From Bdellovibrionota bacterium (GTDB lineage: Bacteria > JAGRBM01), in contig JBFLVN010000002.1 in the NCBI GenBank assembly GCA_040758475.1, forward strand, positions 1 through 42,634: a stretch of DNA of 42,634 nucleotides, read 5' to 3'. How positions within the stretch are numbered: position 1 is the first letter of the stretch; every line of letters starts with the position of its first letter. The translations under genes were made by a program, and so were the position numbers. Under the pieces are notes generated by a model. That model saw only the letters and a list, made by a program, of their open reading frames with translations, did not search any database and was not told the origin of the DNA. This document shows positions 7,415-28,663 of this stretch, piece after piece.

Positions 7415-7427
7415 TCGTTTGATTTGG

Positions 7428-7466
7428 ACGGCCCGGCGGCTCAAGGCCGCCGGGCCGTTTGTCTCT
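7428..7466 (+). terminator. Rho-independent terminator
   Basis: A perfect 13-bp GC-rich stem pairs ACGGCCCGGCGGC (7428-7440) with GCCGCCGGGCCGT (7446-7458) around loop TCAAG, followed by TTTGTCTCT. It starts 14 nt after the stop at 7414. Confidence 0.65.
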
Positions 7467-7505
7467 GCCCGGTTGTTACTGGTTTAGTGGTTGGGGGAGG
7501 TTCTC

Positions 7506-8711: not shown

Positions 8712-8787
8712 GAAACGTCGACTACAAACCCTCCGGCCCCGAAAGCCGGGGGGGGAGAAATTGGAAAGCGAAAGGGGTTTTAGGAAC

Positions 8788-9726: not shown

Positions 9727-9760
9727 TTTCCTCGGGCCAGGGATAGACAGGAGTGTTGAC

Positions 9761-10960: not shown

Positions 10961-10996
10961 TCCAGCCGCGCCCAGGGGCGCCATCCCGAGGAACCC

Positions 10997-13900
10997 GTGA
11001 GCACCCCTCCGGAGAGCGCGGGTCGTCCAAGCCAAAAGACGAAACGATGGGTGCGTCTCCTGGTCTGGTCCCTTGCCGGAGGAGGGGCCGTCCTGGCGGC
11101 GCTGCTCGCATACCTCGTTTTCTCCTTCCCTTCCGAATGGGCCCGCGTCGAACTCGAGAAAAGGCTCTCGAAAACCCTTGGCGCCCGCGTGACGGTGGGG
11201 CATTTGGGGATCGACCTCCTGCACGGCCTGGAGGCCCGCGAGATTCGCGTCGCCCCGGAAAGCGAAGCCGCCTCCTGGTTTTCCCTCAAAAGCCTCATTC
11301 TGGAAGTTGAATTTTTTCCACTCTTGCGCGGTGAAGTCATTGTACGGGCCTTGCGATTAGAAGATTTGGACCTTCTTCTTGAAAAAGATTCCTCTGGCAA
11401 ATGGAATTGGGTTTTTCTAAATCCCGCTGAAAAGCCGGCCGCTACGCCAGAGCCCGCCGCCGCCACGCCGCCGGGACCCCTCGACCTCAAAGTCCGGATC
11501 GAAGAATTCGAAATCGCGCGGGCGAACTTCCACCTGCGGACGCCGGATTTCGCCCTGGATGCGGGCCCTTTCTGGCTTTCCGCCCAAGGCTCCCTCGAAA
11601 AAGACGGCCGGATCGACGCCAAGCTCTCCGCCCGGCGGGACGACGGAACCGCCGTCGCCGCTTCCTGGGATTTGGCCAAATCCAAAAACAACGCGAGCAT
11701 GGGTCTTGAGGGGGAGCTTTCCGCTTTCCTCGAAAAAGGCGATTTGGCGAACGCCCGTTTGACGTGGGATTTGAGCCCGCTCGCTCTTTCATCGGCGGGG
11801 CGGGAAGAGGAATTTTCGGAAGGGGCACGGATCGAATTGGAAGCGAGCGCCTCGCTCGCTTCGGCGAAGGGACAAGTTGGGCGCTTGAGTGTTGCCATTC
11901 CGGAAACTTTGAGCCTGGCGGCCTCCGCCTCTGCCGATTGGAGCGGACCCCTCAAAGCGGAAGTGCGTCTTTCCGAGCTGGAGCTTCTGCTTTCCGGCGC
12001 CTTGCGGCGAGCCCGGATTTTCATGGAAAAACCACCCCGTGTGGAGGGAACTCTTTCTCTCAAAGACCTCCTCGTTCAGGTTCAGCCGGAAGGGGCGAGC
12101 TCATCCACGCGGATTTCTGGTGGCATCGGATTTTCCGAAGGAGCCTTTGAGGCCAGCGGTGCCGTCATGGAAGGGCTTACCGCGAGCCTAAGCGCTTCCG
12201 ATCTGCGCTTGGGGGCCGGTGGCCTTCCCGAGGGCGGAGCGGTGCGGGGGGAGATCGGCTGGAAGGCTTTCGCCCGGGGCGCAGCCCTCGCCGTTTCCGG
12301 TGCTTCGTTCACGGCCGATGCGAAGGCCGAAGATGGGAAGACCCAAATCGCTTTGGACGGGAAGGCAGGTCTTGCCCTTTCAGCGGGAAGTGTCCGTTAC
12401 GATGGCCCTTTGTCCCTTTCGGCCGCGGGCCGTCTCGATTCCAAAGGAAAGCGCTTTGATCTTTCATCGGCCACTGCGGGGGTTAAAGCCCTTTCCCTCT
12501 CGGCCAGTGGATCATTTCCCTTGGAATCTGCTTCGGGTGATTTTCGTGCCAAGGCCGATGCGAACGTGGATGTTCCGGCGTTTCTCGAATCCTGGCTCCG
12601 GGTAGGCGGGACGCCTTCGGCGCTCGAAGTGGCTGGACTTGCGGGGAACGTGAAGCTCTCCGTTCGGGCGGACCGAAAAGGTAAAGAGCCTCTTTCGGGT
12701 GAAGCCGGCCTCTCCGCAAATCTTTTTACCGGGTCGAGCGGTTCTTTTTCCCTGAGCGAGGGGGTTTTCCATTTAGCGGCCAAGACCCGGCACCGGAAAG
12801 ATTTTTCGATGGAAACCGCCTCCGCCAAGGGTGAAGCGAGCGCCGCTTGGGTGGGCACTGGCGGGCGAGGAGCCAGGGACGCGCGCCTGGAATTGAATGC
12901 GGATATTTCGGGCAAGCCCTCGGAACAGGTCCTGGAGGCGAAGGCCGATCTTCGCGTCCGGAAACTTGAAGTGGACGACCCGAAAGCCAAGGCCCGGCTC
13001 GCCGAGGCGCCGCCGCTCCATCTCACCGCCCAGGCTTCGACCCAGCTTCAGAGTCTGGCCACAAACGTGAGTGCTTCTCTTGGACTGGGAGAATCAATCG
13101 GCTTGCGGGTCGCCGGAAATCTCTGGCCCAAGGAAGAACGGCTCGACCTCCAGGCCCGAAGTGCAGGGGATTGGGCGCTCTCTGAAATCCTGGCGATTCT
13201 GCCGACCTCAGTGCGCGCGCCACTTCGAGGCGGAACGGCGGGCGGAGTCCTCTCGTGGAATGCCCGCGCTTCCGGCCGGTATGCGAAAAAAGAAAAACAG
13301 GGATTCCCTCTCGACCTTCGAGGAAATGTGAATTGGCGGGGCGTCGATTTCTCCCTCGTCACCTCGGATATTTCGGTTTCCGGCCTTTCGGGAGAAGTCC
13401 GAATTCGTCCTGGAGAGGGGCGGCAGGGCGTGGAAGCCGCCGGGCATCTGCAAGCGGATTCGTCCCGTATTCCCGCGTTCCGTTCCGAAAAATTGGGACC
13501 TACAGTGGCGAGCTTTCGCGCCAAGACGGAAGATTTTTCCGAGTTTCAGATCGAGGAGTTATTTCTCTACAGCGACGCCTTGAAAACAGCCATCAAGGCG
13601 GGCGCGGAGATTCGGCCCGCGGCGAGTCCGCCGACTCTCTCCGTGCGGGCCAACGTCGTTCTTGGAACCCCGAAGCGATGGACCGTACGTCCCGGGATGG
13701 AACTGGCGGGAACTTTGAACCTCGCCCTTTCGGGGGAACGCGTGGGGGAGGGGCCCCTGCGCGTCCGGGGTGAGGCGGGCTTTTCGGATTTTTCAGCGTG
13801 GCTTGGGAAGAACGTCACCGTAGAAGGTGTCAGCGGCAAGCTGCCGCTCGTAACCGACCTCTCCCTGAGGGGTGCGCCACTTCTTTCGTACGAACCCCTG

Positions 13901-14614
13901 GTGGGCGCTGAAACTTCCTCCGGACCACTTCGTTCGGTCCTTTACCGCGATTTTCTGGCTCTCGACCCTCCCCCGGAAGAGCCGGGGCTGCGAATCGGCC
14001 GGATCGAAGCGGCCCGGATGGTCCTCTCGAAAGTCCACCTCGACGGCCGCCTGGAAGGGGCCGACGTCGCGGTGGACAATCTGAGCGCGGCCTTTTTGGA
14101 CGGGAGCGTGAGCGGAAACGCGCGGGTTCATCTCGAAAAGCCACTCTATGCTCAGGTTTCGCTGGGAGCCCGGGACTTGGATTTCCGCAGAATCATCCCG
14201 GCGGGACGTTTGGCAGGTTATTCGCGCAAGGACGTCGCTTCTTATCTCGTCAACGGCGACGTGAACGCCAAAGTATTTTTCGCTCCTTTGGACCTTCAGG
14301 GAGAAGTGGAACTCACCCGCGTGGGGAGGGAAGTCGTCTATGCGATCCTCGATTGGGTCGATCCCCAGCGGGCGAATGCCGGCATTACGAATGTCCGGCA
14401 GAAACTTGAGAAATACGCAGTGATTGGCCCCAAGATCGTTTCATTCAAGGCTGAGCACGGAAATGCAGACCTCAGCATTTTTATGCGAGAACAGGCTAAA
14501 GCTAGCCAATTGCACCTTTTGCTGGGTTATTGCGTTGTTACCAGGGGTTGCCAACTGGAATACACCATCCCGCGAATCGCCTTGAAATCGCTTTTGGGGG
14601 TCTATCTAAAATGA
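10997..14614 (+). CDS. AsmA-like / YdbH-like large envelope protein (N-terminal membrane anchor, about 1150 aa predicted beta-rich)
   Basis: GTG start after GAGGAA; single N-terminal TM helix WVRLLVWSLAGGGAVLAALLAYLVFSF. The body is long, repetitive and Ala/Gly/Ser/Leu-rich, as in AsmA-family groove proteins. Its stop overlaps the start of a DUF1318/YdbL-like gene (ATGA), mirroring E. coli ydbH-ynbE-ydbL. Confidence 0.6.
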   Translation: MSTPPESAGRPSQKTKRWVRLLVWSLAGGGAVLAALLAYLVFSFPSEWARVELEKRLSKTLGARVTVGHLGIDLLHGLEAREIRVAPESEAASWFSLKSLILEVEFFPLLRGEVIVRALRLEDLDLLLEKDSSGKWNWVFLNPAEKPAATPEPAAATPPGPLDLKVRIEEFEIARANFHLRTPDFALDAGPFWLSAQGSLEKDGRIDAKLSARRDDGTAVAASWDLAKSKNNASMGLEGELSAFLEKGDLANARLTWDLSPLALSSAGREEEFSEGARIELEASASLASAKGQVGRLSVAIPETLSLAASASADWSGPLKAEVRLSELELLLSGALRRARIFMEKPPRVEGTLSLKDLLVQVQPEGASSSTRISGGIGFSEGAFEASGAVMEGLTASLSASDLRLGAGGLPEGGAVRGEIGWKAFARGAALAVSGASFTADAKAEDGKTQIALDGKAGLALSAGSVRYDGPLSLSAAGRLDSKGKRFDLSSATAGVKALSLSASGSFPLESASGDFRAKADANVDVPAFLESWLRVGGTPSALEVAGLAGNVKLSVRADRKGKEPLSGEAGLSANLFTGSSGSFSLSEGVFHLAAKTRHRKDFSMETASAKGEASAAWVGTGGRGARDARLELNADISGKPSEQVLEAKADLRVRKLEVDDPKAKARLAEAPPLHLTAQASTQLQSLATNVSASLGLGESIGLRVAGNLWPKEERLDLQARSAGDWALSEILAILPTSVRAPLRGGTAGGVLSWNARASGRYAKKEKQGFPLDLRGNVNWRGVDFSLVTSDISVSGLSGEVRIRPGEGRQGVEAAGHLQADSSRIPAFRSEKLGPTVASFRAKTEDFSEFQIEELFLYSDALKTAIKAGAEIRPAASPPTLSVRANVVLGTPKRWTVRPGMELAGTLNLALSGERVGEGPLRVRGEAGFSDFSAWLGKNVTVEGVSGKLPLVTDLSLRGAPLLSYEPLVGAETSSGPLRSVLYRDFLALDPPPEEPGLRIGRIEAARMVLSKVHLDGRLEGADVAVDNLSAAFLDGSVSGNARVHLEKPLYAQVSLGARDLDFRRIIPAGRLAGYSRKDVASYLVNGDVNAKVFFAPLDLQGEVELTRVGREVVYAILDWVDPQRANAGITNVRQKLEKYAVIGPKIVSFKAEHGNADLSIFMREQAKASQLHLLLGYCVVTRGCQLEYTIPRIALKSLLGVYLK

Positions 14615-15243
14615 GCCGTTTGTGTGTGTCATTTGCTCTCTTCTTTGCCATCTGTTTTGCGGCGTGCAGTTTCAAGATACCAACCCCTCTGATCATCGAC
14701 AGCAAGACGGCCCTCGAAGCGCAGGTGGTGGGTGAATACGAGCCCCTGGCGGACGATCTTCTTTTGCTCGCCTCTCTTCCTGGTGTCGCGCGGCGGGCGG
14801 CGGAGGGCGTTTCGGAAGTAAAGGAAGAAGGGGAAGAGGGCAAACGCCTCCGGGATGCCCAGGCCCGGCTTCTCCAGGCCCTGCGCTCCCAGGAATACAA
14901 CCGGGACGATCTTTCCCGTTTCCGGCGCGAAGGATGGATGGGCGAGTCAGCGTCCGGGCGCATTCACGTTTTTGAGGACCGGCTCGCGGGACTCGATCTT
15001 CCGACCCGCGAACGGGTGCGCGTGCTCACGGAAGAGGAAAACCGGGACCGTGAGGGGATCGTAGTTGCGGTCATCGAAATCGCTCCAGATCTTGGACCGG
15101 AAGACAAACCCGAACTCGAACAGGTTTTTGCCCGCCAGTACATCGGGCGGGCCGAAGCGGGCGCGTGGGTGGAACAACCCGCAGGCCAATGGCATCAGCT
15201 CTCTGTTGGCGATGAAGGCGGGAACAAGGGCGAAGGAAAGTAG
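14611..15243 (+). CDS. Lipoprotein with YdbL-like (DUF1318) C-terminal domain
   Basis: Trimmed to ATG 14611, which overlaps the upstream stop as ATGA. Lipobox is FFAICFAAC. The DUF1318-like pattern is REGWMGESASGRIHV...LTEEENRDREGIVVAVIE...AEAGAWVEQPAGQWHQL. Confidence 0.6.
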   Translation: MSRLCVSFALFFAICFAACSFKIPTPLIIDSKTALEAQVVGEYEPLADDLLLLASLPGVARRAAEGVSEVKEEGEEGKRLRDAQARLLQALRSQEYNRDDLSRFRREGWMGESASGRIHVFEDRLAGLDLPTRERVRVLTEEENRDREGIVVAVIEIAPDLGPEDKPELEQVFARQYIGRAEAGAWVEQPAGQWHQLSVGDEGGNKGEGK

Positions 15244-15244
15244 A

Positions 15245-18200
15245 ATGGGCCGCCAAGCCCTCACCACAAGGCGCTTTTTTGCGCCGCTGGCGCTGGCCTT
15301 GCTTTTGGGGGCTTGTGCCGGGCTGCTTCCTTCTTTTACAGCCCAGACAGGGTGGCGGGATTCTTTTCCCAAGAAAATCCCGGAGGCCCCCACTCCCTTG
15401 CCGGAGCGCCTCGTCGAACCCCTTCCCGTGACATTCGACGCGGCCGGTCACCTGGATCCTCTCGTCAATGAAAAAACCGGGCTTCTCCTCTACGCCTCCG
15501 ACCGGGGCGGGAATTGGGACCTTTGGGCAAGGCCGCTCATAAGCGGGCTCCCCCGGCTGCTCACCGATTGGCCTTCCCGCGAGACGGCGCCAGCCCTCTC
15601 TCCGGACGCAGAGCATCTTGTTTTCGTCTCGAACCGTCACGATCCGCAAGGCGATATCTACCGGGTTTCCATCGAGAATGGGACGCAGGAACGGGGGGAT
15701 GCGAAACCGGTAAGGCTTCCTAGGCCCCGTACGGAGGAAGCTTCGCCTCTGTGGCTTTCGGACAAGGAAATTCTTTTCACTTCGCTGCACGGCGGAACCT
15801 GGAAGCTCTTTCGTTACAACTGGGAAGAGTCAGGAGCCGGCCCGGGAGAAATAACCATGCCCCCGGTTTCGGACCACGAAGTCCGGATGCCTGCCCTTGC
15901 ACCTGCTCTTTCAAAAAATTCCCCTCGGGTGATCGCCTTTATCGCCCGGAGCGAAGAAGGCCCTTCTGGTCTTTACGTCTCATCACTTCCGGAAAAGGAC
16001 GCAGAACTCAAGGCCGTGCGGGTCTTCTCCGGCGCTCCTATCGAGAGCTATCCAGCTTGGGGAGAGATTGAAGAGGGGAATTGGGCCTGGCTCTATTACG
16101 CCCGTTATCTGGATGACACCAACCTGGACGGCCTCGTGACGCCAGAGGACAATTCTTCGCTTTGGCGCGTGCGGGTGAGCCTCATTCCCGGATCGGCCGG
16201 CCCCCTTGGCGAACCCGAACCGCTGACGGGCGGTGGTGGATACGATTTTTCTCCCAAGCCTTCAGAAGCGGGGCTTTATTTCATCCGTCAGGAGCAGGGG
16301 CGGGTGGGGATTTACCGCCTTCCTTTGGGAGGAAGGGCTGCCGGGCTCGAAGCTTCTGCTGCCCAGCTTTCCGCAATCCTCGAATGGGAAGCCCCTTACA
16401 GCCGGTTGCTGGCTCTCCGGTGGATTGCCGCCCAAGCAGGCCGGAGCGGAGAGCGTTCCCTTGCCGCGCGGGCCCGGTATGAGATCGCCGGAATTTTTGA
16501 AGAAATCGGCAACTTGGCTGCCGCTCTTTCAATGCACGGGAAATTAGTGGAGGAGGATGCGCCCGGTGTTTCGGCCCTCTCCAAACTAGCCATTGTACGC
16601 CTCGAATCCCGCGTCCTGGCCGCGGCGTCCCTCGGAAAAGACCGGAACCGGATCGTGGCGGAGGAAATCGCCTCCTATGAAACGAGGCTGCGGGAAGCAG
16701 CACAGGAAAGCAGCAAAGGAGGGGAACGCCTCCTGGCGCAAGCCCTCTTTGAACTCGCCCGCATCGAGCTCGATTTCGGATTTCCCGTAAGAGCGCTCGA
16801 TCGCATTTCAGAGATCGAGAAAAAGTATTCGAGCGAGCGTCCGGTCCTTGCCCATGCACGCCTCTTCCGGGCGGAAGTCTTCGCATCCCGGGGGAACCGG
16901 CCGGCGTTCCAAGAGGTGATCCTGGGCGTTCTGCGGGATTTTTCAGGAGAGACGCAGGTCGTCGCGGGTGCCATCCGGCGTCTTCTTTCCGAGACGGCGA
17001 GGCTCTATCCCGATATTCCAGACCGCATCGAAGCTTTCCGCCGGCTGACCGATGAATTCGCGGATGTCCCCCGGCTTTCAACAGCAGCCTCGCTCGAACT
17101 CGCCCGGCTTTACGAAGAAGCGGGCCGGTTATCGGCGGCGCGGCGGGAGTACGAGCACTTGCTCCGCGATCCCTCCCTGCTGCCGGAAGAGCGATTTTCC
17201 GCAGTCACAGGGCTTTCATTGGTATTGGCTTCCGAAGGGGAGCCCGATGCCGCTTTGCAAGCTTTGTCCGATGTGAAGGTGCCGGAAGGGGATATATCCC
17301 GCCTGGAGGCGCTTTTGCGGGAATGGGCGGCCCGCCTCTTGGAAGCGGCGGACCGGGCGCGCCGGGCAGGGCACCCTGCCGAGGCTCTGCGAATTTACGA
17401 AGCCATCGCTGCCCGTGTGCCAGAAGTGCCGGAAGCCCATTATGGCCGGATCGAATTGACGGAAAATCCTTCTTCCCTTTCGGGGGAATATGCCGCGAAG
17501 CTTCGGGATCATCCGGCCACGGCGCACTACGCCCTCGCATTGATCGTGCTTCGCAAAGACGGTACGCCGGACCTTTCCGACATCCTCTCCGATCACGTGG
17601 TTCCAGCCATCGTGCTGGACCCCGGTATCCCCGCGTTCCACCATCTCAAGGGATACATCCACGAAATCAGCGAGACCGTCTACGGCCGCCAGAAGGGAGC
17701 CGGCGGGCTCGAAGAGGCCATCGACGCGTATCGAAGTGCCCTCTACCTCGTTGGAAACGACGGCCGCCAGAAAGCCCGGCGGCAGGAACTCCTGCTCGCC
17801 CTCGCGAACGCTTATTTCAGTTTTCCCACCCCCAACCATTCCGAAGCCTGGCGGTATTACAAGGAATGGCTTGCTTCGGGAGGAAGCACGGACGATCCCC
17901 AGCGGAAACTTCTTCTCGAAGAACGCATGGCCCGATCCGCTTTCCATTCGGGCGAACTCGACTCGGCCATCGCCCATGCGGCCCGCGGGGCTGAAATTGC
18001 CCGCGGGCTTGGGCTTTTGTCGAGGCGTCTTAAGCTTCTCGAATACGAAGCCTTCTGCCTTCAGGAGAAAGGCGAGTACGGTCATGCGGCCGAACGCCTG
18101 GAGCAAACCCTTTTGGAAGGAGCGCGGCGGCTGGACAAGCCGAGCCGGGCCCGCCTTCACAGGAGTCTTGCCTACAACCGGTACCGCTTGGGGAGGGAGG

Positions 18201-21200
18201 AAGAGGCCCTGGGGGACTTGCAGGAAGCGCGGGATCTCCTGGCGGCTTCGGGAGGGGCATCCTACGGACGCGGCCGCTGGGACGACAAAGTGCGAAAGCG
18301 CCTTGGCCTCACTCCTCAAGGGGAATTGGCGGTCAATTTCACTTACGAAGGCCGCGTTCTCGAAGAAATGGGCGATGTCCGAGCGGCGGTGGACGCTCAG
18401 CGGGAAAAGATCGCTCTTCTCGCCGATCCGGGGAAGAAAGGCGGGGAAGATCAACTCCAGTTCTGGGAACGCCGTTCGATCGGATGGAACCGGATCGGCC
18501 GCCTCGAGTACGAACGGGCCGTTTCGGAAGACGCCCGCCAGGCCCTCGAAGCTTCTCTAGAGGAAGCGCGCCTGGCCGTTCAATTGCGCGGCAAGGGGCT
18601 GGCGGCGGAAGGGCTCGCGCGTCTTTCGATGGAACTCAAAGCCGGCGGGTCTTCAACCCCGGAAGGGGTGGACGCGCTTCTCTCGGAAGCCATCCGCGAT
18701 CTCGATGACCTCCGCCAATCGGGAGGAAAACCCGATCTTCTCGTTCTAGCGCGGCTCTATCATGCGCGGGCACTCCTGCGTGTTTCTGTACGGGGACAAA
18801 AGGAGAAGAATGGGATCGGGTGGCTTGATCCTTTAGAGGATTTCGCCGCGGCGGAGCGGATGCTCCTGCTCGCGGAACGCCAAGGGATGCGGGGGCTTTC
18901 GGGCCTTCGCATCTCCATCGGCTTGAACGAGGCCGCTGCTTTGGAGCGCCTGGGGTTCTCGGCTCTGGCATTAGAAAAGACGAGGGAATCCGCGTCGGGA
19001 GCCAGGCGATTCCGGCTCCCGTGTCTTGAAATGATCGCTGATTTCTCGCTCGTACCTTTTGATCCCGAGGCCCTCGAACGGGCCCATGGGAAGGCGCTCG
19101 ACTTGCCGCCCGCCCTCTGCCGGGAAGTTTCTCCCCATCAATTGCGCCGGTTCCATACCGCCCTCTACGAAGCGCTTCTCGAAAAAACGGGCGATCCCGC
19201 CGAGAGCCTTGCTTTGGTGGAGGAGAAGGCCCAGTTAGATCTGGCGGTGATTACCGGCGGCCCGGGAATTGCCTTTGGCGAGCCGCTCGAACAAGAGGCG
19301 TGGAGCCGCGCCCGGATGGCTTTGGATCAGGCGGAGGCGGCCCTTGCCGCTGTTCAGGAGTTCAAGTTTGTCGAAGGCTCCCTGGAGAGTGAGCGGGCGC
19401 TTGCGGTTCTTCAAGAGAGCGCGGACAAAACCATCAAAGAATCGGGTAGTGCCTGGATGCGCCTTTTCTCCGATTACCCTTCTCTTGCGCGCCTTCTTCT
19501 CCCTTCTGTTCCAAAGACTGCTCAGATAGCAGAAGCCCTCGGAAACGCGGCTTTGCTTCGCGTGAAACGATCGGGAGATAAAATTCTCGTTTGGCGTGTG
19601 GATTCCAAGAGCGTCGAACGATTCGATTCTTCCCTGCCGCCGGAATTGGATGGGCTCGTGAACGCGTGGCGGGTTTCCGGCCGGGCGACCGATGGCGATT
19701 GGGCGGACCTTCGGCGCTGGTGGAGCATGCTCCTCGCCCCTGTTCGTGAAGGGCTCGGCCACTCGCTCTACATCATCGCCGATGACGATTTGGCGGTTCT
19801 CCCCTGGGGCGAAGTGGGGGACGTATTGGGCGCAAAGCCTCCAGCCGTGGCGCAGGCGGGATCGCTCGCCCACCTGTGGGCCGTCCACGAGCGGCGGAAT
19901 GGGAACAAGCGTCGCGGGATTCTAGTGGCCCAGACGGACGCGGCTTCGGATGAAGACTTGAACGCTCCTTGGCTCGTCTCGTTCCACGAAAAACTGGCCC
20001 AGCGAATTACGGGGCTTCGCGGTTTTTATTTCCGGGACAACGGCCGCGAAGAGTTCGTCAAGACGATCCGGGATGCCGGTAGCCAGCAACACTTCATTCA
20101 CGTCTTTTCCGAGCTTTCATTCGCCAGGGGTCTTCCCCTCCAAACGAGCCTTTCTTTTCCATCTCCACCATTGGAAGGAGCCCTCCCGGATCTTTCCCTC
20201 CGTGCATGGACGGAACTCTCGGCTCAGGCGAACGTAGCCGTTTTCGAGAACGCAACAGGGGAATTTTCGGGGGAAGGCCTTTCGGCCTTCGCTTATTTCT
20301 CAGCCCTTGCCGGGATACCGAGTGTGGTCATGCAACGGGTTTCCACGAGCAGGGTACCGCCACCGGAAGAACTTTCGTTCTATCTCTCTGTTTACGATGC
20401 CCTCGTTCCGGACAAAGAAGGAAAATATCTTCCCGTGGGGGAAGCGCTCCTTCGGGCCCGGTCTTCTTCGAAGGCGCCTGGCGATGTGCGCCTTCTCGGG
20501 CATTTGGGGCTTGCCTCTGAAGAAGCCCTCTCCATCGCTCAGAAGGAATTGAATCGCTTTGCCGGCAGCGCGGTGCAGGCGGCCCAGGCGGGGGATTTCG
20601 GAAAGGCGGCCCGTTTCGCCCAGCGGGCCGTGCAGTTCATGGACGTGGTGGGCGTTCCCGACCAGCCCCTTTCGCAGATGCTCAGCGTGGCGGCGACGAC
20701 GCTCAAGAAATCGAACCAACTCGAAGGGGCCATCGCCTACGAAGACCGGCAGGCAAAACTCCTCGAGCGCGCGGGCGCCTTGCCCGCCCTGGTGCAAGCG
20801 CTCTTTTTCCTGGGGAAAGACCTCTCCCAACTCGGCCGCCACGAGGAAGCCCAGAGTGCCTTGGGCCGGGCGGTCGAATTCGCCCGGAAGCTCGGCAAGA
20901 AGGATTTCGAAATCATCGTCCTCTCGGAACTCGCCCGCTCGCTGGAGTTGGGGGGGAAACCCGTTGAGGCCATGGCCCGGTACGGCGAAGCCCTGGCTTT
21001 GGCAAGTGAAACGGGCGACAAGATTTCCGCCGAAGAGCTTGAATACAACGCCGGGCGAGTTGCCCACGAGCGGCTGGGCGACGAATCCTTGGCCGAGAAA
21101 CACCTCTCAGCGGCTTTGAGTATTGCCGAATCCCTGGGCAAGGGGGCGGAGCGGAACGCGGCGAGAGACGCCCTTACCCTCTCACTTACGCAGTTGTCCC

Positions 21201-23251
21201 GGGGCCGTTTCCGGGCTGCTTTGGAGGTTCTTGAAAAGCTTCTTCCTCTGGCCGGGCGTTTGGGGGACAAGGCCCTGGAAGCCCAGGGGCTCGTTTACCG
21301 GGGGGCCGCCCTTCGGGAGACAGGGCGCCTTCGGGAGGCCCTCTCCGATCTCAAGCAGGCGGAAAGGCTTGCGGGAGAAGCCAAGGTGCAGGCCGTCCTG
21401 GCCGACGCTTCTTCGGCGGCTTCGCTCGTCCTCCTCGATTTAGGCCAGACGGGCGAAGCCAGGGAAAAGGCTCAAAAGGCTCTCGATTTATCGGACAATG
21501 ATTTCGCCCGGGCGGCGGCGTCTCACAATCTGGCCCTCGTCTATCTGGAGGCCGGGGATTTCGGGGCTGCGCGGGAACTAGCAGCCAAGGCGCTCGACCT
21601 TGCCCGCAAACGAAACGCCGCGGCCGCGGAAGCCGATGAGCTATTTCTCCTGGCCGGCATCGGACGGGGGGAAGGAAGAGACCGGAGACGGGTTCTCGAA
21701 GAACTGGCATCGGTCTGCGAGAAATACATGGCGGCTGGGCTTCTCGTCCGCGGCCTTGAATGCCGTGTGGCATTTCTCGAATGGGGCGGAGAGCTTCCAG
21801 ATACGGCGGGACTCGAAAGGGCGGTGGGGGAACTTCAGCGCCAAGACCTTCTCGCCCGGCTTTATTTCCTGCGCGGTGATTTCCAAAAAGCGGCGGAAGC
21901 TTTTCTTCTTGCGGAGCCTTCTTCCGCTCGTTGGCAAGAACGCCGTGGCTTCGATCCGGAAAGGGGCATGAGCGCGGCGCGGGAGGCGGTTTTCGGCCTC
22001 GCCAAGGAAGGGAAAATCGAGGAAGCCCATTCCTTGTGGGAGCTTTCTCGCGCCGCGCGCCGCCGGGCGCTCTTGGCCCTGGAATCGCCGCGCCTTTCCC
22101 GGGAACGGGGTGGCCCGCTCGTGGAAAAACTCTTCACCCTCTGGGCCGAGGCGCGGAATGAAGCCTCTCCCCAGGAACTTGCCGCTCTCCGTGGTCAAGC
22201 GGATGCCGCCGCGCTGGAACTTCAAAAACTCCATCCCGAAACCCACGCGCTTCTTTTTTCTTCAGGCAATTCCCCCGTCCTTCGCCAGAAGGAGCTTGGC
22301 GATGGAGAAATCCTTCTGGACTTTGTTGCCGGCAGGGAACGCACTTTCGTTTTTGCTTTGAGTGCCGCTGCTCCAGAAGGGTTTTGGGTGGAGGAAGGAT
22401 CGAAGAACCTCGGGCAAAGGGCCAAAGCCTTCCGGGAGATCGTTGCCTCTTTCGGCCGCTACGAGGAAGAAAGAAAACAGCTGTTTGAGAAATTACTCGC
22501 GCCCGCTTTCAAGGACGGCATCCAGCGCTTTGTCGTTATCTCGGACGAACAGCTTGCTGGTCTTCTTTTTGAAGCACTGATTCCGGATTCTTTTTCTGTT
22601 TCCCTTTCGCGTCTTGCGAGCCTCGCCCTTCCCCTCCGGCGGGGAAGAACTTCCTTTCCGGGCCTCGCCATCGCGGTCTTCGGTGATTTTCCTGCTGAAT
22701 CGTTTGCGGGAGCCCTTCCCCCTCCCGTCCGGCAGCGGCCTTCGCCTTCGCAGCGGGCCCTTTGGGATAAGGAAATTCTCGGCCTTGCACGGGCGTCCGG
22801 GATTTTTCAGTACCAGCGGGCAGGCGATGTCTCGGAGAAAGGCCCCGTTCTTCCGGGTGCTACTACTCTCGCCATTCATTGCGCTTCCGCGGCTTCTGGG
22901 AACCCAGTCTCGCAGACGCGTTGTGGCGGGAAAGAAGGCTTTCTGCTGGCAAGCATTGAAGGGTTGGATCGCCCTCCCGTGCTTCTGGGGCTTCCCGGGC
23001 TTGCGGAACTCTCTTCCCAAGAGGTTTACGAGTTATCCCTTTGGGGCGAGTGGATGACGGAAGGCGCAGCGGCCGTATTCGGCGCAGGACGCCATCCCGT
23101 CGCCGGGGCCAGGTTCGCCAAATACTTCTACGGGGGCCTTTCTCGAAAATCGCCCCTGTCATCTTTCGTTGACGCCAGGGGCCAAGTACGTGAAATCTTT
23201 GGGCATCCAGCCTATTGGGCAGGGTTTTTCTACCAAGGCCCTCTCGACTAG
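15245..23251 (+). CDS. Giant (2668 aa) lipoprotein: TolB-like PD40 beta-propeller, TPR array, CHAT-like module 1, TPR array, CHAT-like module 2
   Basis: Trimmed to ATG 15245, 1 nt after the upstream stop. Lipobox is LALALLLGAC. PD40-like repeats are LLLYASDRGGNWDLWARPL and PALSPDAEHLVFVSNRHDPQGDIYRVSI. There are many TPR-like helices. CHAT-like hallmarks are YIIADDDLAVLPWGEV, HFIHVFSE, VVISDEQLAGLLFEALIP, and the C-terminal GHPAYWAGFFYQGPLD. Confidence 0.85.
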   Translation: MGRQALTTRRFFAPLALALLLGACAGLLPSFTAQTGWRDSFPKKIPEAPTPLPERLVEPLPVTFDAAGHLDPLVNEKTGLLLYASDRGGNWDLWARPLISGLPRLLTDWPSRETAPALSPDAEHLVFVSNRHDPQGDIYRVSIENGTQERGDAKPVRLPRPRTEEASPLWLSDKEILFTSLHGGTWKLFRYNWEESGAGPGEITMPPVSDHEVRMPALAPALSKNSPRVIAFIARSEEGPSGLYVSSLPEKDAELKAVRVFSGAPIESYPAWGEIEEGNWAWLYYARYLDDTNLDGLVTPEDNSSLWRVRVSLIPGSAGPLGEPEPLTGGGGYDFSPKPSEAGLYFIRQEQGRVGIYRLPLGGRAAGLEASAAQLSAILEWEAPYSRLLALRWIAAQAGRSGERSLAARARYEIAGIFEEIGNLAAALSMHGKLVEEDAPGVSALSKLAIVRLESRVLAAASLGKDRNRIVAEEIASYETRLREAAQESSKGGERLLAQALFELARIELDFGFPVRALDRISEIEKKYSSERPVLAHARLFRAEVFASRGNRPAFQEVILGVLRDFSGETQVVAGAIRRLLSETARLYPDIPDRIEAFRRLTDEFADVPRLSTAASLELARLYEEAGRLSAARREYEHLLRDPSLLPEERFSAVTGLSLVLASEGEPDAALQALSDVKVPEGDISRLEALLREWAARLLEAADRARRAGHPAEALRIYEAIAARVPEVPEAHYGRIELTENPSSLSGEYAAKLRDHPATAHYALALIVLRKDGTPDLSDILSDHVVPAIVLDPGIPAFHHLKGYIHEISETVYGRQKGAGGLEEAIDAYRSALYLVGNDGRQKARRQELLLALANAYFSFPTPNHSEAWRYYKEWLASGGSTDDPQRKLLLEERMARSAFHSGELDSAIAHAARGAEIARGLGLLSRRLKLLEYEAFCLQEKGEYGHAAERLEQTLLEGARRLDKPSRARLHRSLAYNRYRLGREEEALGDLQEARDLLAASGGASYGRGRWDDKVRKRLGLTPQGELAVNFTYEGRVLEEMGDVRAAVDAQREKIALLADPGKKGGEDQLQFWERRSIGWNRIGRLEYERAVSEDARQALEASLEEARLAVQLRGKGLAAEGLARLSMELKAGGSSTPEGVDALLSEAIRDLDDLRQSGGKPDLLVLARLYHARALLRVSVRGQKEKNGIGWLDPLEDFAAAERMLLLAERQGMRGLSGLRISIGLNEAAALERLGFSALALEKTRESASGARRFRLPCLEMIADFSLVPFDPEALERAHGKALDLPPALCREVSPHQLRRFHTALYEALLEKTGDPAESLALVEEKAQLDLAVITGGPGIAFGEPLEQEAWSRARMALDQAEAALAAVQEFKFVEGSLESERALAVLQESADKTIKESGSAWMRLFSDYPSLARLLLPSVPKTAQIAEALGNAALLRVKRSGDKILVWRVDSKSVERFDSSLPPELDGLVNAWRVSGRATDGDWADLRRWWSMLLAPVREGLGHSLYIIADDDLAVLPWGEVGDVLGAKPPAVAQAGSLAHLWAVHERRNGNKRRGILVAQTDAASDEDLNAPWLVSFHEKLAQRITGLRGFYFRDNGREEFVKTIRDAGSQQHFIHVFSELSFARGLPLQTSLSFPSPPLEGALPDLSLRAWTELSAQANVAVFENATGEFSGEGLSAFAYFSALAGIPSVVMQRVSTSRVPPPEELSFYLSVYDALVPDKEGKYLPVGEALLRARSSSKAPGDVRLLGHLGLASEEALSIAQKELNRFAGSAVQAAQAGDFGKAARFAQRAVQFMDVVGVPDQPLSQMLSVAATTLKKSNQLEGAIAYEDRQAKLLERAGALPALVQALFFLGKDLSQLGRHEEAQSALGRAVEFARKLGKKDFEIIVLSELARSLELGGKPVEAMARYGEALALASETGDKISAEELEYNAGRVAHERLGDESLAEKHLSAALSIAESLGKGAERNAARDALTLSLTQLSRGRFRAALEVLEKLLPLAGRLGDKALEAQGLVYRGAALRETGRLREALSDLKQAERLAGEAKVQAVLADASSAASLVLLDLGQTGEAREKAQKALDLSDNDFARAAASHNLALVYLEAGDFGAARELAAKALDLARKRNAAAAEADELFLLAGIGRGEGRDRRRVLEELASVCEKYMAAGLLVRGLECRVAFLEWGGELPDTAGLERAVGELQRQDLLARLYFLRGDFQKAAEAFLLAEPSSARWQERRGFDPERGMSAAREAVFGLAKEGKIEEAHSLWELSRAARRRALLALESPRLSRERGGPLVEKLFTLWAEARNEASPQELAALRGQADAAALELQKLHPETHALLFSSGNSPVLRQKELGDGEILLDFVAGRERTFVFALSAAAPEGFWVEEGSKNLGQRAKAFREIVASFGRYEEERKQLFEKLLAPAFKDGIQRFVVISDEQLAGLLFEALIPDSFSVSLSRLASLALPLRRGRTSFPGLAIAVFGDFPAESFAGALPPPVRQRPSPSQRALWDKEILGLARASGIFQYQRAGDVSEKGPVLPGATTLAIHCASAASGNPVSQTRCGGKEGFLLASIEGLDRPPVLLGLPGLAELSSQEVYELSLWGEWMTEGAAAVFGAGRHPVAGARFAKYFYGGLSRKSPLSSFVDARGQVREIFGHPAYWAGFFYQGPLD

Positions 23252-23289
23252 ATTGGAAAATTAAGGCCGGGAGCGAAGGAATTTTTCCC

Positions 23290-24246
23290 ATGACTCTCCG
23301 AAATCTTTTCAAGCGCAGCCTCGTTTTCACTGGTTCAGCGGCAGTATTGCTCTCGGCTTCCGATTGGGCCGGACGCGCGGCGAACCTCGCCCGCGCGGCT
23401 GAAAGCACCGGCAAGAAGGGCCTCGTCACTTATGTCGAGGGACAGGCCCAGCACCGGGCAGGAGAAAAGAGTTGGGACCCGCTCCAGACGAACGAAGGCG
23501 TCGAGAGCGGCGAAACAGTCCAGACCAAGCGCAAGACACGCGCCGAGATCGAACTCGATCCGGCCAAGGTCGTGCGCCTCGATGAAAACACGATCGTTGA
23601 TCTCGTGAAACTCTTCGAAGAAGAGCAACAGAAGAAAGCCGTTACCCTGGAAGTCGACCAGGGGCAGGTCTGGTCCCAGCTCGCCTCGCTCGGCGGGGAC
23701 GAGTCCTTCAAGATTTCTTCGCCGCTGGCGGCCGCCTCCGTGCGCGGCACGGTTTTCAATTTCGGCGTCGGTTCCAGTGGCAAGTCCACCCAGGTGGACG
23801 TCTTCTCGGGTTCCGTCGAAGTTTACAATCCCTTCCCCACGCAGAAGTACACGCCCGGCATGCCGGGCGGGTTCCAGGCTCCCCGGCAGGTGCAGGGCCC
23901 CCAGCAGGTGGCTGGTCCCAAGGAAGTGAGCCTCGAAGAGTGGTACTACATCGTCCGCGAGATGCAGCGGATCCGCATTACCCAGGGGCAGACCCAGTTC
24001 GACGTGCAAGACATCCCAGCCGATGAAAAAGCGGGTTCCTGGCGGAAGTGGAACGAAGAGCGCGACCGGCTCCGTGCGGCCCGCATGGGCCACCGGCCAA
24101 TCTCGGAACCCCCGCCCCCTACGCCACCAGCTCCCGAAACTCCAGCGGCACCGCAGGTTCCTTCGGCCCCTGAAGCGCCGGCCGCTCCGATGCCCGAAAC
24201 TCCGGCTCAGCAGCCGCCTGCGCCGGAAGCTCCAGCGGGCCAGTAA
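23290..24246 (+). CDS. Periplasmic FecR-domain protein with Pro-rich C-terminal tail (paralog 2)
   Basis: Trimmed to ATG 23290. The FecR-like core is GLVTYVEGQAQHRAGEKSWDPLQTNEGVESGETVQTKRKTRAEIELDPAKVVRLDENTIVDL...SSPLAAASVRGTVFNF. It shares the motif VQGPQQVAGPKEVSLEEWYYIV with 10133..10960 (VPGPQQVPGPREVTVEEWTRIV). The tail is PPPPTPPAPETPAAPQVPSAPEAPAAPMPETPAQQPPAPEAPAGQ. Confidence 0.85.
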   Translation: MTLRNLFKRSLVFTGSAAVLLSASDWAGRAANLARAAESTGKKGLVTYVEGQAQHRAGEKSWDPLQTNEGVESGETVQTKRKTRAEIELDPAKVVRLDENTIVDLVKLFEEEQQKKAVTLEVDQGQVWSQLASLGGDESFKISSPLAAASVRGTVFNFGVGSSGKSTQVDVFSGSVEVYNPFPTQKYTPGMPGGFQAPRQVQGPQQVAGPKEVSLEEWYYIVREMQRIRITQGQTQFDVQDIPADEKAGSWRKWNEERDRLRAARMGHRPISEPPPPTPPAPETPAAPQVPSAPEAPAAPMPETPAQQPPAPEAPAGQ

Positions 24247-26182: not shown

Positions 26183-28375
26183 ATGGCATTGAAATTGACA
26201 GTGGGAGCTTCGAACAAACAGAGCGCTCTGAGCCAGCGCATCCGGCGGGCACTCTTCTGGCTGGTGGCAGGAGCGCTTGTTTCTTGCGGGTCCGGTGATG
26301 GACCGGGCTTCATCCGGCCCTCCAACGCGACGTGCCGGGCCTTCTTGCCCGAAGTCCTCGTGGGCCTCGAAGAGGCTTTCCCCGATCTTCCCGATTTCGA
26401 CCGGCCCGTTTTTCTTCTCCAGGCGCCGGGAGATTCTTCCCGATGGTTCCTGGTGGAGCAGGGGGGTGTGGTGCGGACGTTTGCAAATTCACCTACCGTT
26501 TCGTCGGCAACTGTTTTTCTCGACATCCAGAACCGGGTGGACGATGGCGCCAGCGAAGCCGGCCTTCTCGGCATGGCGTTCCATCCCGATTTCGCGGCGA
26601 ACTACGAAGCTTTTCTCTCGTACACGGCAGACGACGGAGAAGGCGGCTTTGTCTCCCGCATTTCCCGTTTCACGAGCAGCGATAGCGGGTTGACCCTCAA
26701 TCCGGCATCCGAGGAAATTCTCCTCACACTGGACCAGCCTTTTAGCAACCACAACGGCGGTCACATCGTTTTCGGGCCGGACGGGTACCTTTATATCGGT
26801 TTTGGCGACGGCGGTTCGGGTGGCGATCCCCAGGGGAACGGCCAGAACCCCGATACGCTTCTTGGAAAAATCCTGCGGATCGACGTGGATGGTGGGACTC
26901 CCTACGCCGTGCCCAATGATAACCCCTTCGCCCCTGGTGGCTCGGACCCCGGCGGCGGTCTTCCGGAAATCTACGCCCTCGGGTTCCGCAATCCCTGGCG
27001 CTGGAGTTTCGATGCCGACACGGGAGACCTTTGGGTGGGCGATGTGGGGCAGGCGGATTTCGAAGAGATCGATCCCGTAGAGATGGGCGGCAATTACGGT
27101 TGGAATATCCGGGAAGGGGCTCATTGCTACGACGAAGAGGTTTGCGATTCCACCGGCCTCGTTGATCCCATTGCGGAATACAACCATTCGCAAGGAAACG
27201 CCGTGACTGGTGGCTACGTCTACCGGGGAACGGCCATTGCTTCGTTTCTACCGGAAGAAGAAGATGGCGCTGAAGTCTACATCTACGGTGACTTTGGAAC
27301 GGGGAACATCTGGGGCCTTTTCGACCCTTACGGTCTTGCCTGGGTGGAACCGATTTTCCCCGCCAGCGGCCTGTTGATTTCTTCCTTCGCGGAAGGGCTC
27401 GACGGCGAAATCTACGTGGTCGATTACAGCGGGAGCATTCACCAGATCGTCGAATCGACGACTCCGGCGGCAGGGGGCCCTCCGGCTCTTCTTTCGGAGA
27501 CGGGATGTGTTAATCCCAACAACCCGGCCGCGCCCGCCGCGGGGCTCATTCCATTTGAAATCAACCACCCTTTCTGGTCGGATGGCGGGGTCAAGTCGCG
27601 CTATCTGGCGCTTCCCGATGGAGAGCAAATTACGATTCAGAGTGATGGTGATCTCGATTTTCCTGAAGGAACGGTCCTGGTGAAATACTTCCGGCTGGAT
27701 GGCGAACTCATCGAAACGCGCCTCCTCATGCGCCGGATGGATGGGGCATGGGAAGGGTTTTCCTACGAATGGAACGATGTGGGGACCGACGCCGATCTCC
27801 TGGAAACGGGAAAACTAAAGCCCATCGGTTCACAAACCTGGGTCTACCCGAGCCGCTCCGAGTGCTTGATGTGCCACACGGAGGCGGCGGGGCGGTCCCT
27901 GGGCCTGGAACTGGGCCAGCTCAACCGTTCCGTTTCTTTGGGGGATATACAGGGCAATCAACTTCTGGCCTGGGCAGGGGCGGGGCTTTTCGAAGATGAC
28001 TTGCCCACGCCGCTGCCTATTCTTCCCGGTCTTACTTCGGGCGGGTCGCTCGAACAGCGCGCCAGGGCCTACCTGCATGCCAATTGTTCCCAGTGCCACC
28101 GGCCGGGCGGGGAAGGGCAGGGGCCGGAGGATTTCCGGTATTCGACGTCCCTCGCGGATATGGGAGCCTGCAACGTTTCCCCCACCCTCTCGAACCTCGG
28201 GAATCCGGACGCCCTACTGCTCAAGCCCGGTGAGCCTGAAAACTCGATTATCTCCATGCGAATGCGCGACCTCGTAGGGGGGGATCGCATGCCGCCGCTC
28301 GGGAGCACGGTACTCGACGAAGTAGGGGCTCAGTTGATCGACGATTGGATTGAATCGCTACAGGACTGCAACTAG
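26183..28375 (+). CDS. Lipoprotein: PQQ-dependent soluble sugar (glucose/sorbosone-type) dehydrogenase beta-propeller fused to a C-terminal domain with two CXXCH haem-c motifs
   Basis: Lipobox is LVAGALVSC. Dehydrogenase motifs are GLLGMAFHPDF, HNGGHIVFGPDGYLYIGFGDGGSGGDPQGNGQN, LLGKILRIDVDG and GFRNPWRWSFD. CLMCH lies at 27863-27877 and CSQCH at 28085-28099, both in frame. Confidence 0.85.
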   Translation: MALKLTVGASNKQSALSQRIRRALFWLVAGALVSCGSGDGPGFIRPSNATCRAFLPEVLVGLEEAFPDLPDFDRPVFLLQAPGDSSRWFLVEQGGVVRTFANSPTVSSATVFLDIQNRVDDGASEAGLLGMAFHPDFAANYEAFLSYTADDGEGGFVSRISRFTSSDSGLTLNPASEEILLTLDQPFSNHNGGHIVFGPDGYLYIGFGDGGSGGDPQGNGQNPDTLLGKILRIDVDGGTPYAVPNDNPFAPGGSDPGGGLPEIYALGFRNPWRWSFDADTGDLWVGDVGQADFEEIDPVEMGGNYGWNIREGAHCYDEEVCDSTGLVDPIAEYNHSQGNAVTGGYVYRGTAIASFLPEEEDGAEVYIYGDFGTGNIWGLFDPYGLAWVEPIFPASGLLISSFAEGLDGEIYVVDYSGSIHQIVESTTPAAGGPPALLSETGCVNPNNPAAPAAGLIPFEINHPFWSDGGVKSRYLALPDGEQITIQSDGDLDFPEGTVLVKYFRLDGELIETRLLMRRMDGAWEGFSYEWNDVGTDADLLETGKLKPIGSQTWVYPSRSECLMCHTEAAGRSLGLELGQLNRSVSLGDIQGNQLLAWAGAGLFEDDLPTPLPILPGLTSGGSLEQRARAYLHANCSQCHRPGGEGQGPEDFRYSTSLADMGACNVSPTLSNLGNPDALLLKPGEPENSIISMRMRDLVGGDRMPPLGSTVLDEVGAQLIDDWIESLQDCN

Positions 28376-28663
28376 CCGGAGCCATTCTCATTTCTGGGGT
28401 TCGGTTGTCTGAGTGTGAGGAGAGAATCTTCCAGCCGGAGTGGGGCTGCCTTGCCGGTATTTCGCCAGCGGCCGCAAGAAAGCCCGGCCGATGGGTTTGT
28501 GGCGCGGAGTTTTAGCCTTTTAATGTTGCTTCGCTCCCGCATTGCATTAAAAGCAAGTCCCTTCTATGATTCTGGTAGTTTTGTTCGCCCGCTGATTTCT
28601 CTCCGATGGAACCGCGCCAGGGCTATGCGCTTCCTAGGCAGGATGGGCAGTAAGGTAGGGGGA

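Follow-up and report, generated by a model that had tools for sequence, protein, structure and literature searches.

A giant predicted lipoprotein with a PD40 propeller and two dyad-less CHAT folds, and the linkage of its gene to a YdbL-like lipoprotein gene

An array of tetratricopeptide repeats (TPR) joined to a caspase-like CHAT fold is found in the Craspase protein TPR-CHAT (Csx29) and in separase, which are catalytically active, cytoplasmic or nuclear, and activated by RNA or by the release of securin. The same combination occurs in DdvA of Myxococcus xanthus, a periplasmic TPR-CHAT anti-sigma factor (PDB 8ROT) that regulates an island of CRISPR and cyclic-oligonucleotide-based antiphage signalling (CBASS) genes (PMC11506125). 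Here we describe a giant open reading frame (ORF) located at positions 15245-23251 (+) of a 42,634-nucleotide (nt) stretch of a Bdellovibrionota bacterium contig (JBFLVN010000002.1; the whole stretch is referred to as the window). Its 2668-amino-acid (aa) product combines a predicted lipoprotein signal and a PD40/TolB-type propeller with two successive pairs of a TPR array and a CHAT fold, both of the latter lacking the His-Cys dyad. The value of this protein lies less in its odd architecture than in the conserved link between the giant, a YdbL-domain lipoprotein and an AsmA-like protein.

DdvA is the closest characterised relative of the giant in fold and location. Both have an exported TPR array followed by a CHAT fold, and DdvA was matched by the two CHAT modules of the giant in Foldseek searches with E values of 9.5e-8 (module 1) and 2e-5 (module 2). 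DdvA is shorter (991 aa), crosses the membrane once and has a zinc anti-sigma domain on the cytoplasmic side, one TPR-CHAT unit and a retained dyad, whereas the giant is a predicted lipoprotein with a propeller, two units, no dyad and no sigma-factor or defence context. DdvA shows that CHAT folds function outside the cytoplasm (PMC11506125), so the view of TPR-CHAT proteins as generally cytoplasmic, which had been adopted in the first-pass annotation of this sequence, is outdated, and the default equation of CHAT with a cytoplasmic conflict effector is corrected. Craspase TPR-CHAT and separase share the TPR and the caspase-like fold with the giant at approximately 10% identity and, unlike the giant, have a single TPR array. 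Separase pairs a pseudo-protease domain with an active protease domain, which resembles the dyad-less module 1 and the catalytic module 2 of the giant family. The N-terminal part of the giant is a PD40-repeat beta-propeller like that of TolB, which is periplasmic, and of other PD40 proteins (Tricorn, S9 peptidases); unlike TolB, the giant is without the N-terminal TolA-binding domain and has no adjacent tol/pal genes.

The building and regulation of AsmA-like phospholipid bridges to the Gram-negative outer membrane is an open question. To our knowledge, YdbL is the only characterised DUF1318 protein. In the ydbH-ynbE-ydbL system of E. coli, the AsmA-like inner-membrane protein YdbH joins the outer-membrane lipoprotein YnbE, and the two make up a bridge for phospholipid homeostasis, and YdbL, encoded by the last gene, modulates the multimerisation of YnbE (PMC11126948). 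YdbL reportedly binds the C-terminal helix of YnbE, and unbound YdbL is degraded by DegP (preprint 10.64898/2026.03.16.712125). The window resembles this system in that an AsmA-like gene is followed by a translationally coupled gene for a lipoprotein with a YdbL domain, and the DUF1318 match covers the whole length of YdbL. The differences concern the AsmA-like protein, which is of the DUF748 type (1205 aa) rather than YdbH, the lack of a detectable YnbE homologue, and the DUF1318 domain itself, which resides on a lipoprotein with an extra N-terminal segment, whereas YdbL is soluble. E. coli, in turn, is without a giant PD40-TPR-CHAT partner.

The giant gene and its family

The giant ORF comprises 2668 codons without an internal stop, from the ATG at 15245 to the stop codon at 23249-23251, and the uninterrupted reading frame agrees with the single 2668-aa product proposed initially. 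The ATG is located 1 nt beyond the stop of the upstream gene and is preceded by a purine-rich, Shine-Dalgarno-like GGAAAG. A length of 8 kb is unusual for an ORF, and frameshifts do occur in metagenomic assemblies, e.g., in the DUF1318 gene of a related locus (L005); the reading frame could in principle be an artefact, i.e., an assembly chimera or several genes fused via sequencing errors. A search of 5.8 billion proteins retrieved three full-length relatives (2660-2704 aa, 37-42% identity) that were colinear over 99% of the query, and a fourth close relative (P0005, 2276 aa, 38% identity), N-terminally truncated, that covered 85% of it. Approximately 30 distant relatives of 2550-2880 aa from the same search shared the domain list and domain order of the giant, and the full-length family alignment was colinear from end to end, with identities to the distant members of 19-26%. 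The phmmer E values of the giant against family members ranged from 3e-68 to 1e-8, and its nearest named relative was a protein of a Chrysiogenetes metagenome-assembled genome (MAG; 38% identity). Dozens of independent assemblies contain homologues that equal the giant in size and are colinear with it over the full length; together with the conserved domain order and a uniform composition, this shows the giant ORF to be one genuine gene. The fusion of several genes by assembly or sequencing error, which the first-pass annotation had named as fatal to its own reading, is refuted by these homologues and has a negligible probability.

The family comprises at least 113 clusters at 50% identity, with proteins of 2400-2935 aa that appear, judged from their N-termini, to be extracytoplasmic. 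The layout is fixed: a signal peptide or lipobox, the PD40 propeller, a TPR array, a dyad-less CHAT fold, a second TPR array and a C-terminal CHAT domain. The best 150 matches of a module 1 profile were mostly proteins of 2500-2935 aa, matched at both middle and C-terminal positions, and precomputed Tricorn_N and Tricorn_2nd matches were present on relatives of the giant. Members originate from Nitrospinaceae/Nitrospinota, 'Deltaproteobacteria', Chrysiogenetes and unclassified MAGs (e.g., P0008, P0013 and P0019), and they are labelled in the sources only as 'CHAT domain-containing protein' or 'hypothetical'. The giants bearing the former label have the same length and domain order as the window protein and, unlike the window clade (P0001-P0005), a strong Pfam CHAT match and the dyad. 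The window protein itself shows the length, the colinear order and the export signal of the family, but not the majority state of a dyad-bearing C-terminal CHAT. No paper describing the PD40-TPR-CHAT-TPR-CHAT architecture was found in the searchable literature (CHAT combined with FecR, PD40, YdbL/DUF1318/DUF748/TamB or periplasmic TPR lipoprotein), and no experimental study of any family member was found there. The architecture, which had initially been noted as unrecognised, does exist and is unstudied; it is shared by a whole family, however, and exported TPR-CHAT proteins already have a precedent.

The N-terminus of the giant (MGRQALTTRRFFAPLALALLLGAC; 15245-15316, +) reads as a signal peptide with the lipobox LLLGA/C, in which LGA/C ends at Cys24. 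The charged n-region MGRQALTTRR is followed by the hydrophobic FFAPLALALLL and then by GAC (pattern [LVI][ASTVIG][GAS]C). The lipobox Cys is kept in the three close relatives with a known N-terminus (P0002-P0004; VSGC, LAGC and LASC). In the wider family, 13 of 35 members had a lipobox, and the N-termini of most remaining ones were hydrophobic and signal peptide-like, as judged by pattern search and reading by eye. The lipobox in the giant and its close relatives sustains the earlier placement of the protein outside the cytoplasm and predicts that it is exported and lipid-anchored; the anchor would be in the outer membrane.

The PD40/TolB-type beta-propeller extends over aa ~60-430 (15422-16534, +). 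The Pfam model PD40 (PF07676) matched aa 104-140 with 34.3 bits against a cut-off of 20.9 (E 2e-8), this being the one repeat above threshold, and the PD40-like strings quoted previously map to aa 85-98 and 118-141. When compared with PDB sequences, the N-terminal 405 aa of the giant matched TolB propellers at E 8e-7 as a single sequence, while a profile of the propeller region from ten family members reached TolB at E 2e-29, as well as the propellers of S9 peptidases and Tricorn. These results corroborate the N-terminal PD40/TolB-type region of approximately 400 aa described in the first-pass annotation. About six blades were counted by eye. The propeller is the best-conserved region of the giant (57, 43 and 41% identity to close relatives), while constituting only ~15% of its length. 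The possibility that the giant is a TolB orthologue was ruled out, as the NCBIfam TolB models (NF002183 / TIGR02800) matched weakly and at propeller positions only (aa 70-274; 30.3 and 26 bits versus cut-offs of 405 and 343); the protein is TolB-like by repeat type only.

A motif in blade 5, R-[YFW]-x-DDTN-x-DG-x5-D-x3-LW (aa 288-307, DNA ~16106-16165), is nearly invariant in the family, with D291, D295 and D302 conserved in at least 90% of the members. DDTNxDG looks like a Ca2+-binding loop in its sequence and is a good signature for locating the giant family. The loci obtained with the pattern R[YWF]xDDTN[LRH]DG, derived from the propeller alignment, were mostly from Nitrospinota, and the clade of the window protein was not among them.

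The first alpha-solenoid/TPR array spans aa ~431-1344 (16535-19276, +). It was assigned from weak TPR_16/TPR_14 matches at aa 698-737, from the family alignment and from the distant relative P0008, in which the region equivalent to aa 430-1345 of the giant gave strong TPR, SNAP and ARM_TT21 matches. The second TPR array spans aa 1776-2289 (20570-22111, +), and its segment at aa 1776-2122 was densely covered by TPR_12 (five stretches, E 1e-14), TPR_2, TPR_8 and TPR_MalT. The scores exceeded the respective cut-offs for TPR_12 (54.7 versus 30.1 bits), TPR_2 (40.8 versus 27) and TPR_8 (26.5 versus 25.7).

Two CHAT folds without the catalytic dyad

Self-BLAST of the two halves of the giant detected similarity at the TPR level only (E 1e-5), so the duplication is ancient and beyond pairwise sequence comparison, and profile methods were needed. 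The Pfam CHAT model (PF12770) did not match the giant or its relative P0002 at E<=1, and it did match the distant relatives P0008 (233 bits, 4.5e-69) and P0019 (129 bits). A profile built from the bona fide C-terminal CHAT domains of distant members aligned with aa 1356-1560, 2301-2446 and 2619-2664 of the giant. These positions fall in module 1 (aa 1345-1775; 19277-20569, +) and module 2 (aa 2290-2668; 22112-23251, +), for which hhalign against bona fide CHAT gave a probability of 100% (E 2e-50) and 99.8% (E 6e-28), respectively. The AlphaFold model of module 1, based on an 18-sequence alignment, had a mean predicted local distance difference test (pLDDT) score of 89.5 and a predicted template-modelling score of 0.88. 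In a Foldseek search of the PDB, its top 12 matches were all CHAT proteins (E 3e-8 to 2e-5, followed by a jump to 1e-2), comprising Craspase TPR-CHAT (8d9f, 5.5e-8), DdvA (8rot) and Chlamydomonas central-pair proteins. The model of module 2 was less confident (pLDDT 71, with aa 2517-2573 below 50); its matches, with E values from 1e-5 to 3e-3, were DdvA, Craspase TPR-CHAT and separase. A family profile of module 2 retrieved Craspase TPR-CHAT from PDB sequences at 6.5e-9, and the corresponding PDB sequence search with the module 1 profile returned nothing significant; the kinship of module 1 with CHAT emerged only from the fold search and from hhalign. When the module 1 profile was run against 1.84 billion cluster representatives, it retrieved the general CHAT superfamily (72,110 proteins at E<=1e-3), and module 1 is therefore a CHAT homologue. 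Both modules thus show the caspase/separase-like alpha/beta fold by Foldseek and hhalign. The two successive TPR plus CHAT-like blocks proposed in the first-pass annotation hold at the level of fold and homology, and the structure prediction and Foldseek search that it had recommended yielded a caspase-like fold for modules 1 and 2.

The dyad columns of module 1 correspond to Glu1623 and Ala1670 of the giant (hhalign mapping), and no family member in the alignment has His or Cys in these columns. The C-terminal module of distant members carries the canonical motifs HGEF, which supplies the His, and LSAC(Q/E)TG, which supplies the Cys. In the window protein and its four close relatives, neither His nor Cys aligns at these positions, and LSACxTG is replaced by, e.g., LPGLA, LPWAP, LPELV, LPGFS or LPAYQ. 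The 113 giants with a length of 2400 aa or more, a sample of best hits and not a random one, were aligned over their C-terminal 430 aa; the dyad of the C-terminal CHAT was kept in 97 of these proteins and absent in 16, including the window clade. Since the dyad is kept in most C-terminal CHAT domains, the ancestor of the giants was presumably a caspase-like protease of the periplasm that included a pseudo-protease domain. Within the window clade, module 2 is 30-36% identical across its full length, in comparison to 37-43% for the whole protein; the dead module is therefore maintained, not decaying. As both of its CHAT modules are without the His-Cys dyad, the giant is no canonical cysteine protease, and the general description of TPR-CHAT proteins as proteases or conflict effectors, quoted initially, does not fit this copy. 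The giant shows the CHAT fold without matching the Pfam model or retaining the dyad, and it should be called a pseudo-CHAT protein, not a CHAT peptidase.

Conservation of two cysteines of module 2, C2545 and C2559 (xCA...xCG; DNA ~22877-22921), is limited to the dyad-less window clade. Both residues are located in the segment replacing the former catalytic His loop, where the local AlphaFold confidence is below 50. The pair probably forms a periplasmic disulfide, which is the simplest reading because there is no conserved His beside the two residues.

Linkage to the DUF1318 lipoprotein and proposed role

The gene directly upstream of the giant (14611-15243, +) encodes a DUF1318 (YdbL-like) lipoprotein of 210 aa. 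Its start overlaps the stop of the AsmA-like gene by 4 nt, and its own stop ends 1 nt short of the giant ATG. Its family is characterised by an invariant lipobox Cys, a conserved N-terminal segment of the RTALENQVLG type and a C-terminal YdbL/DUF1318 domain. Pfam DUF1318 matched 11 of 11 aligned members (best 1.8e-16), the window copy being borderline (26.9 bits versus a cut-off of 27), and a profile of the family reached the crystal-structure sequence of E. coli YdbL (28oj_A) with an E value of 4e-5, aligning with residues 4-87 of its 88. Neither the YnbE family (Lipoprotein_19) nor any other Pfam model matched the N-terminal segment, even at E<=10; the notion that this segment is a fused YnbE is speculation. 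The AsmA-like/DUF748 protein of 1205 aa is encoded at 10997-14614 (+) and has an N-terminal transmembrane-like stretch (WVRLLVWSLAGGGAVLAALLAYLVF) in addition to its Pfam DUF748, AsmA and YhdP N-terminal matches.

The conservation of this arrangement was evaluated in 27 distinct giant loci (12 from protein look-up and 15 from a genome scan), 26 of which had enough upstream sequence. The DUF1318 lipoprotein gene was located directly upstream of the giant, often overlapping it, in 15 of the 26 informative loci, very distant members (19-26% identity) included, and an AsmA-like gene preceded it in 12 of those 15. The reciprocal scan of metagenomes with the DUF1318-lipoprotein alignment yielded 342 relatives. 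Among the 50 retained loci with informative downstream sequence, a giant followed in 27, within ~600 nt in 21 of them and after inserted AAA-ATPase/PD-(D/E)XK-type genes in the remaining 6. The conserved core is the pair of DUF1318 lipoprotein and giant, to which the AsmA-like gene is attached in a large subset. The LPP20, CsgG-like and FecR genes were added only in the window clade. This gene context points to outer-membrane upkeep rather than defence.

Several loci showed individual peculiarities. Upstream of P0012 (L005, 9158-9935), a frameshift breaks the DUF1318-lipoprotein gene in two; the N-terminal part carries the lipobox and RTALENQVLG, the C-terminal part carries DUF1318, and the gene caller annotated the second half only. 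The most likely cause is faulty assembly, the contig being a long-read one of low coverage. Unannotated 175-aa proteins directly upstream of P0019 (L004, 9444-9974) and P0021 (L007, 9473-10000) are divergent DUF1318 lipoproteins (E 1e-17 with the family hidden Markov model) that were missed by the Pfam precomputation, and both loci are without an adjacent AsmA-like gene. Genes of the AAA-ATPase_like/PDDEXK_9 or AAA_21 type (AbiEii-like ATPase) lie immediately downstream of the DUF1318 lipoprotein in L030, L040, L041, L053 and L063, several of them from metagenome Ga0247727; they were confirmed by Pfam in L030, L040 and L053. In L040, L041 and L063 the giant follows 1.8-7 kb beyond the inserted ATPase genes, which look like mobile or selfish insertions splitting the pair. 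An M48 metallopeptidase gene adjoining the AsmA-like/DUF1318/giant module was rejected as a general partner, having been found in only 3 of 109 loci (L005 18294-19241, L009 3916-4932 and L081 18989-19975).

On the basis of the fold, the lost dyad and the gene linkage, we consider it somewhat more probable than not that the giant is a non-catalytic periplasmic scaffold or adaptor, working with the YdbL-like lipoprotein and the AsmA-like protein in bridge assembly, anchoring or regulation, or in outer-membrane homeostasis; this reading is favoured with moderate confidence. Since YdbL tunes the YdbH/YnbE bridge of E. coli and the giant is coupled to a YdbL-type gene, we infer a bridge or outer-membrane role. 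Docking would take place on the propeller and the TPR arrays, and both CHAT folds would be retained binding modules that formerly received substrate. The giant would interact physically with the YdbL-like and AsmA-like proteins and would take part in assembling, anchoring or regulating an AsmA-like intermembrane bridge, or in outer-membrane homeostasis more broadly, with a role in envelope lipids. In the window clade, the additional FecR-like, CsgG-like and LPP20-like lipoproteins encoded in the operon would act alongside it. In most family members, which have kept the dyad, the C-terminal CHAT would contribute regulated proteolysis as well. The link between the giant family, the YdbL lipoprotein and the AsmA-like protein is a testable candidate for a dedicated bridge regulator or anchor, and the window clade represents a natural experiment, in which the protease folds are dead yet conserved and a scaffold function is separable from cleavage.

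A number of observations weigh against the scaffold interpretation. The functional link is one of guilt by association, and it is not universal: eight of nine Nitrospinota loci and two others are without a nearby DUF1318 lipoprotein, 23 of the 50 DUF1318-lipoprotein loci have unrelated neighbours (e.g., beta-ketoacyl synthase or FTCD), and, among the 11 metagenome giant loci whose upstream sequence was long enough, only 2 had an AsmA-like gene directly upstream. The AsmA-like assignment in the window consists of partial N-terminal matches (DUF748 49.8 bits versus 50, AsmA 39.1 versus 29.8 and YhdP 33 versus 46), and outer- versus inner-membrane anchoring of the giant is not readable from its sequence. 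Additionally, the model of module 2 is poorest around the former active site (aa 2517-2573, pLDDT below 50), and a non-canonical catalytic arrangement is structurally possible there.

A broader and more tentative proposal concerns the family as a whole. The giants might constitute an unrecognised, periplasmic, separase-like proteolytic switch that controls AsmA-like bridges by acting on or via the YdbL-domain lipoprotein, the window clade being a pseudo-protease offshoot that binds instead of cleaving and has recruited extra lipoproteins of the FecR, CsgG and LPP20 types. Given the control of YdbL by DegP, the partner lipoprotein would be the obvious, if speculative, candidate substrate for the catalytic giants. 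If true, this would reveal a new regulatory layer on outer-membrane phospholipid transport and the first caspase-like protease tied to envelope biogenesis.

The TolB-type propeller and an operon rich in outer-membrane or peptidoglycan-associated lipoprotein types (SLH, LPP20/FlgP-like, FlgT_N/FlgO-like and CsgG-like) would also suit a structural tether of the Tol-Pal kind, in which the propeller binds a peptidoglycan-associated lipoprotein and the solenoids span the periplasm, together with the SLH-TPR, LPP20, CsgG-like and FlgT-like lipoproteins and independently of lipid transport. Those lipoprotein genes are, however, limited to the window clade, while the giant family is much broader; its family-wide conserved partner is the YdbL-like lipoprotein, the TolB N-terminal domain is absent and the TolB equivalog scores are far below their cut-offs, and a tether of this kind appears unlikely. 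The structural kinship with DdvA, which is among the best matches of both modules and is an example of a periplasmic TPR-CHAT gating a defence island, suggests a further possibility, namely an envelope conflict or defence sensor that detects phage or other insults and signals through its FecR-like neighbours. CHAT domains are common in conflict systems, and in the window clade the core lies between two FecR-domain genes. These FecR-like proteins, however, have cleavable signal peptides, are without a cytoplasmic anti-sigma domain and are confined to that clade. Genes for sigma or anti-sigma factors and for defence (CRISPR, CBASS or other) are absent from the conserved neighbourhood, and the PADLOC scan returned a generic TPR match and no defence-system signal. 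The conserved partners are of envelope-biogenesis types, in a neighbourhood that is housekeeping-like and variable outside the core, all of which makes a defence sensor quite improbable. The least probable of these functional alternatives is that the window protein is still an active periplasmic protease, cleaving envelope substrates such as the YdbL-like lipoprotein via non-canonical residues (e.g., C2545 and C2559). Proteolysis is ancestral, 86% of the sampled family having kept the canonical dyad, the levels of E. coli YdbL are set by periplasmic proteolysis (10.64898/2026.03.16.712125), and the two clade-conserved cysteines lie near the former His loop, where the local model is unreliable. 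On the other hand, the position preceding them is occupied by H/W and no His beside them is conserved, a conserved Cys pair in an exported protein is more simply a disulfide, the strand of the catalytic Cys carries the five LP-initial sequences given above, and the Pfam CHAT model fails on the giant; we regard residual protease activity as highly doubtful.

The surrounding gene string

The giant is the next-to-last gene of a co-directional string from ~1519 to 24246 (+), in which every product carries a signal peptide, a lipobox or a transmembrane helix. The order is LPP20-like; transglutaminase with CarboxypepD_reg; second LPP20-like; TPR+SLH lipoprotein; LipL46/FlgT_N-like; CsgG-like lipoprotein; PEGA-like lipoprotein; FecR/LipL45-like; AsmA/DUF748-like; DUF1318 lipoprotein; giant; and a second FecR-like gene. 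The giant had been described as half of the coding capacity of the operon, which is approximately correct in magnitude: it occupies 35% of the 22.7-kb string 1519-24246 and 57% of the 14.1-kb stretch 10133-24246. The lipoprotein genes at 5324-10096 were assigned from Pfam/NCBIfam matches and export signals as LPP20/FlgP-like (5324-6175, +), TPR+SLH lipoprotein (6221-7414, +), LipL46/FlgT_N-like (7491-8711, +), CsgG-like lipoprotein (8761-9726, +) and PEGA-like lipoprotein (9761-10096, +). The FecR-domain (LipL45-like) exported protein at 10133-10960 (+) was recognised by Pfam FecR (E 8e-18) and a signal peptide, and its orthologues were found only in L001 and L006. The second FecR-domain exported protein (23290-24246, +; FecR E 1e-14), whose start was taken as the first Met after the stop of the giant, has orthologues directly downstream of the giant in L001, L002 and L006. 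The order from LPP20 to the second FecR gene is repeated around P0002 and P0003, and the set at 5324-10096 is the same in L001/L006 and absent from distant loci.

The upstream genes at 5324-9726, and also 1519-3126, comprise two to three LPP20/FlgP-like members together with FlgT_N/FlgO/LipL46-like and CsgG/FlgT_M/LpoB-like ones. This set recalls the FlgO/P/T proteins of the flagellar outer disk of Vibrio/Campylobacter, and flagellar genes are not present in the window; the products may assemble in the envelope as a ring or disk of lipoproteins. The gene at 3166-5064 (+) encodes an exported protein with a transglutaminase-like core, four CarboxypepD_reg repeats and a PEGA-like stretch. No homologue of this protein was found in the fetched related loci, of which L001 and L006 end short of the corresponding position.

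Approximately 9 kb downstream, a second AsmA-family gene (32438-35836, -) encodes a protein of 1132 aa with YhdP C-terminal (E 9e-22), DUF748 and AsmA matches; the region thus holds two AsmA-like paralogues. The intervening genes include one for a glucose/sorbosone-dehydrogenase (GSDH) propeller fused to a C-terminal cytochrome c (26183-28375, +), an unrelated envelope enzyme, and one for a lytic transglycosylase (SLT) with three LysM domains (28415-30604, +), an ordinary envelope enzyme unrelated to the giant.

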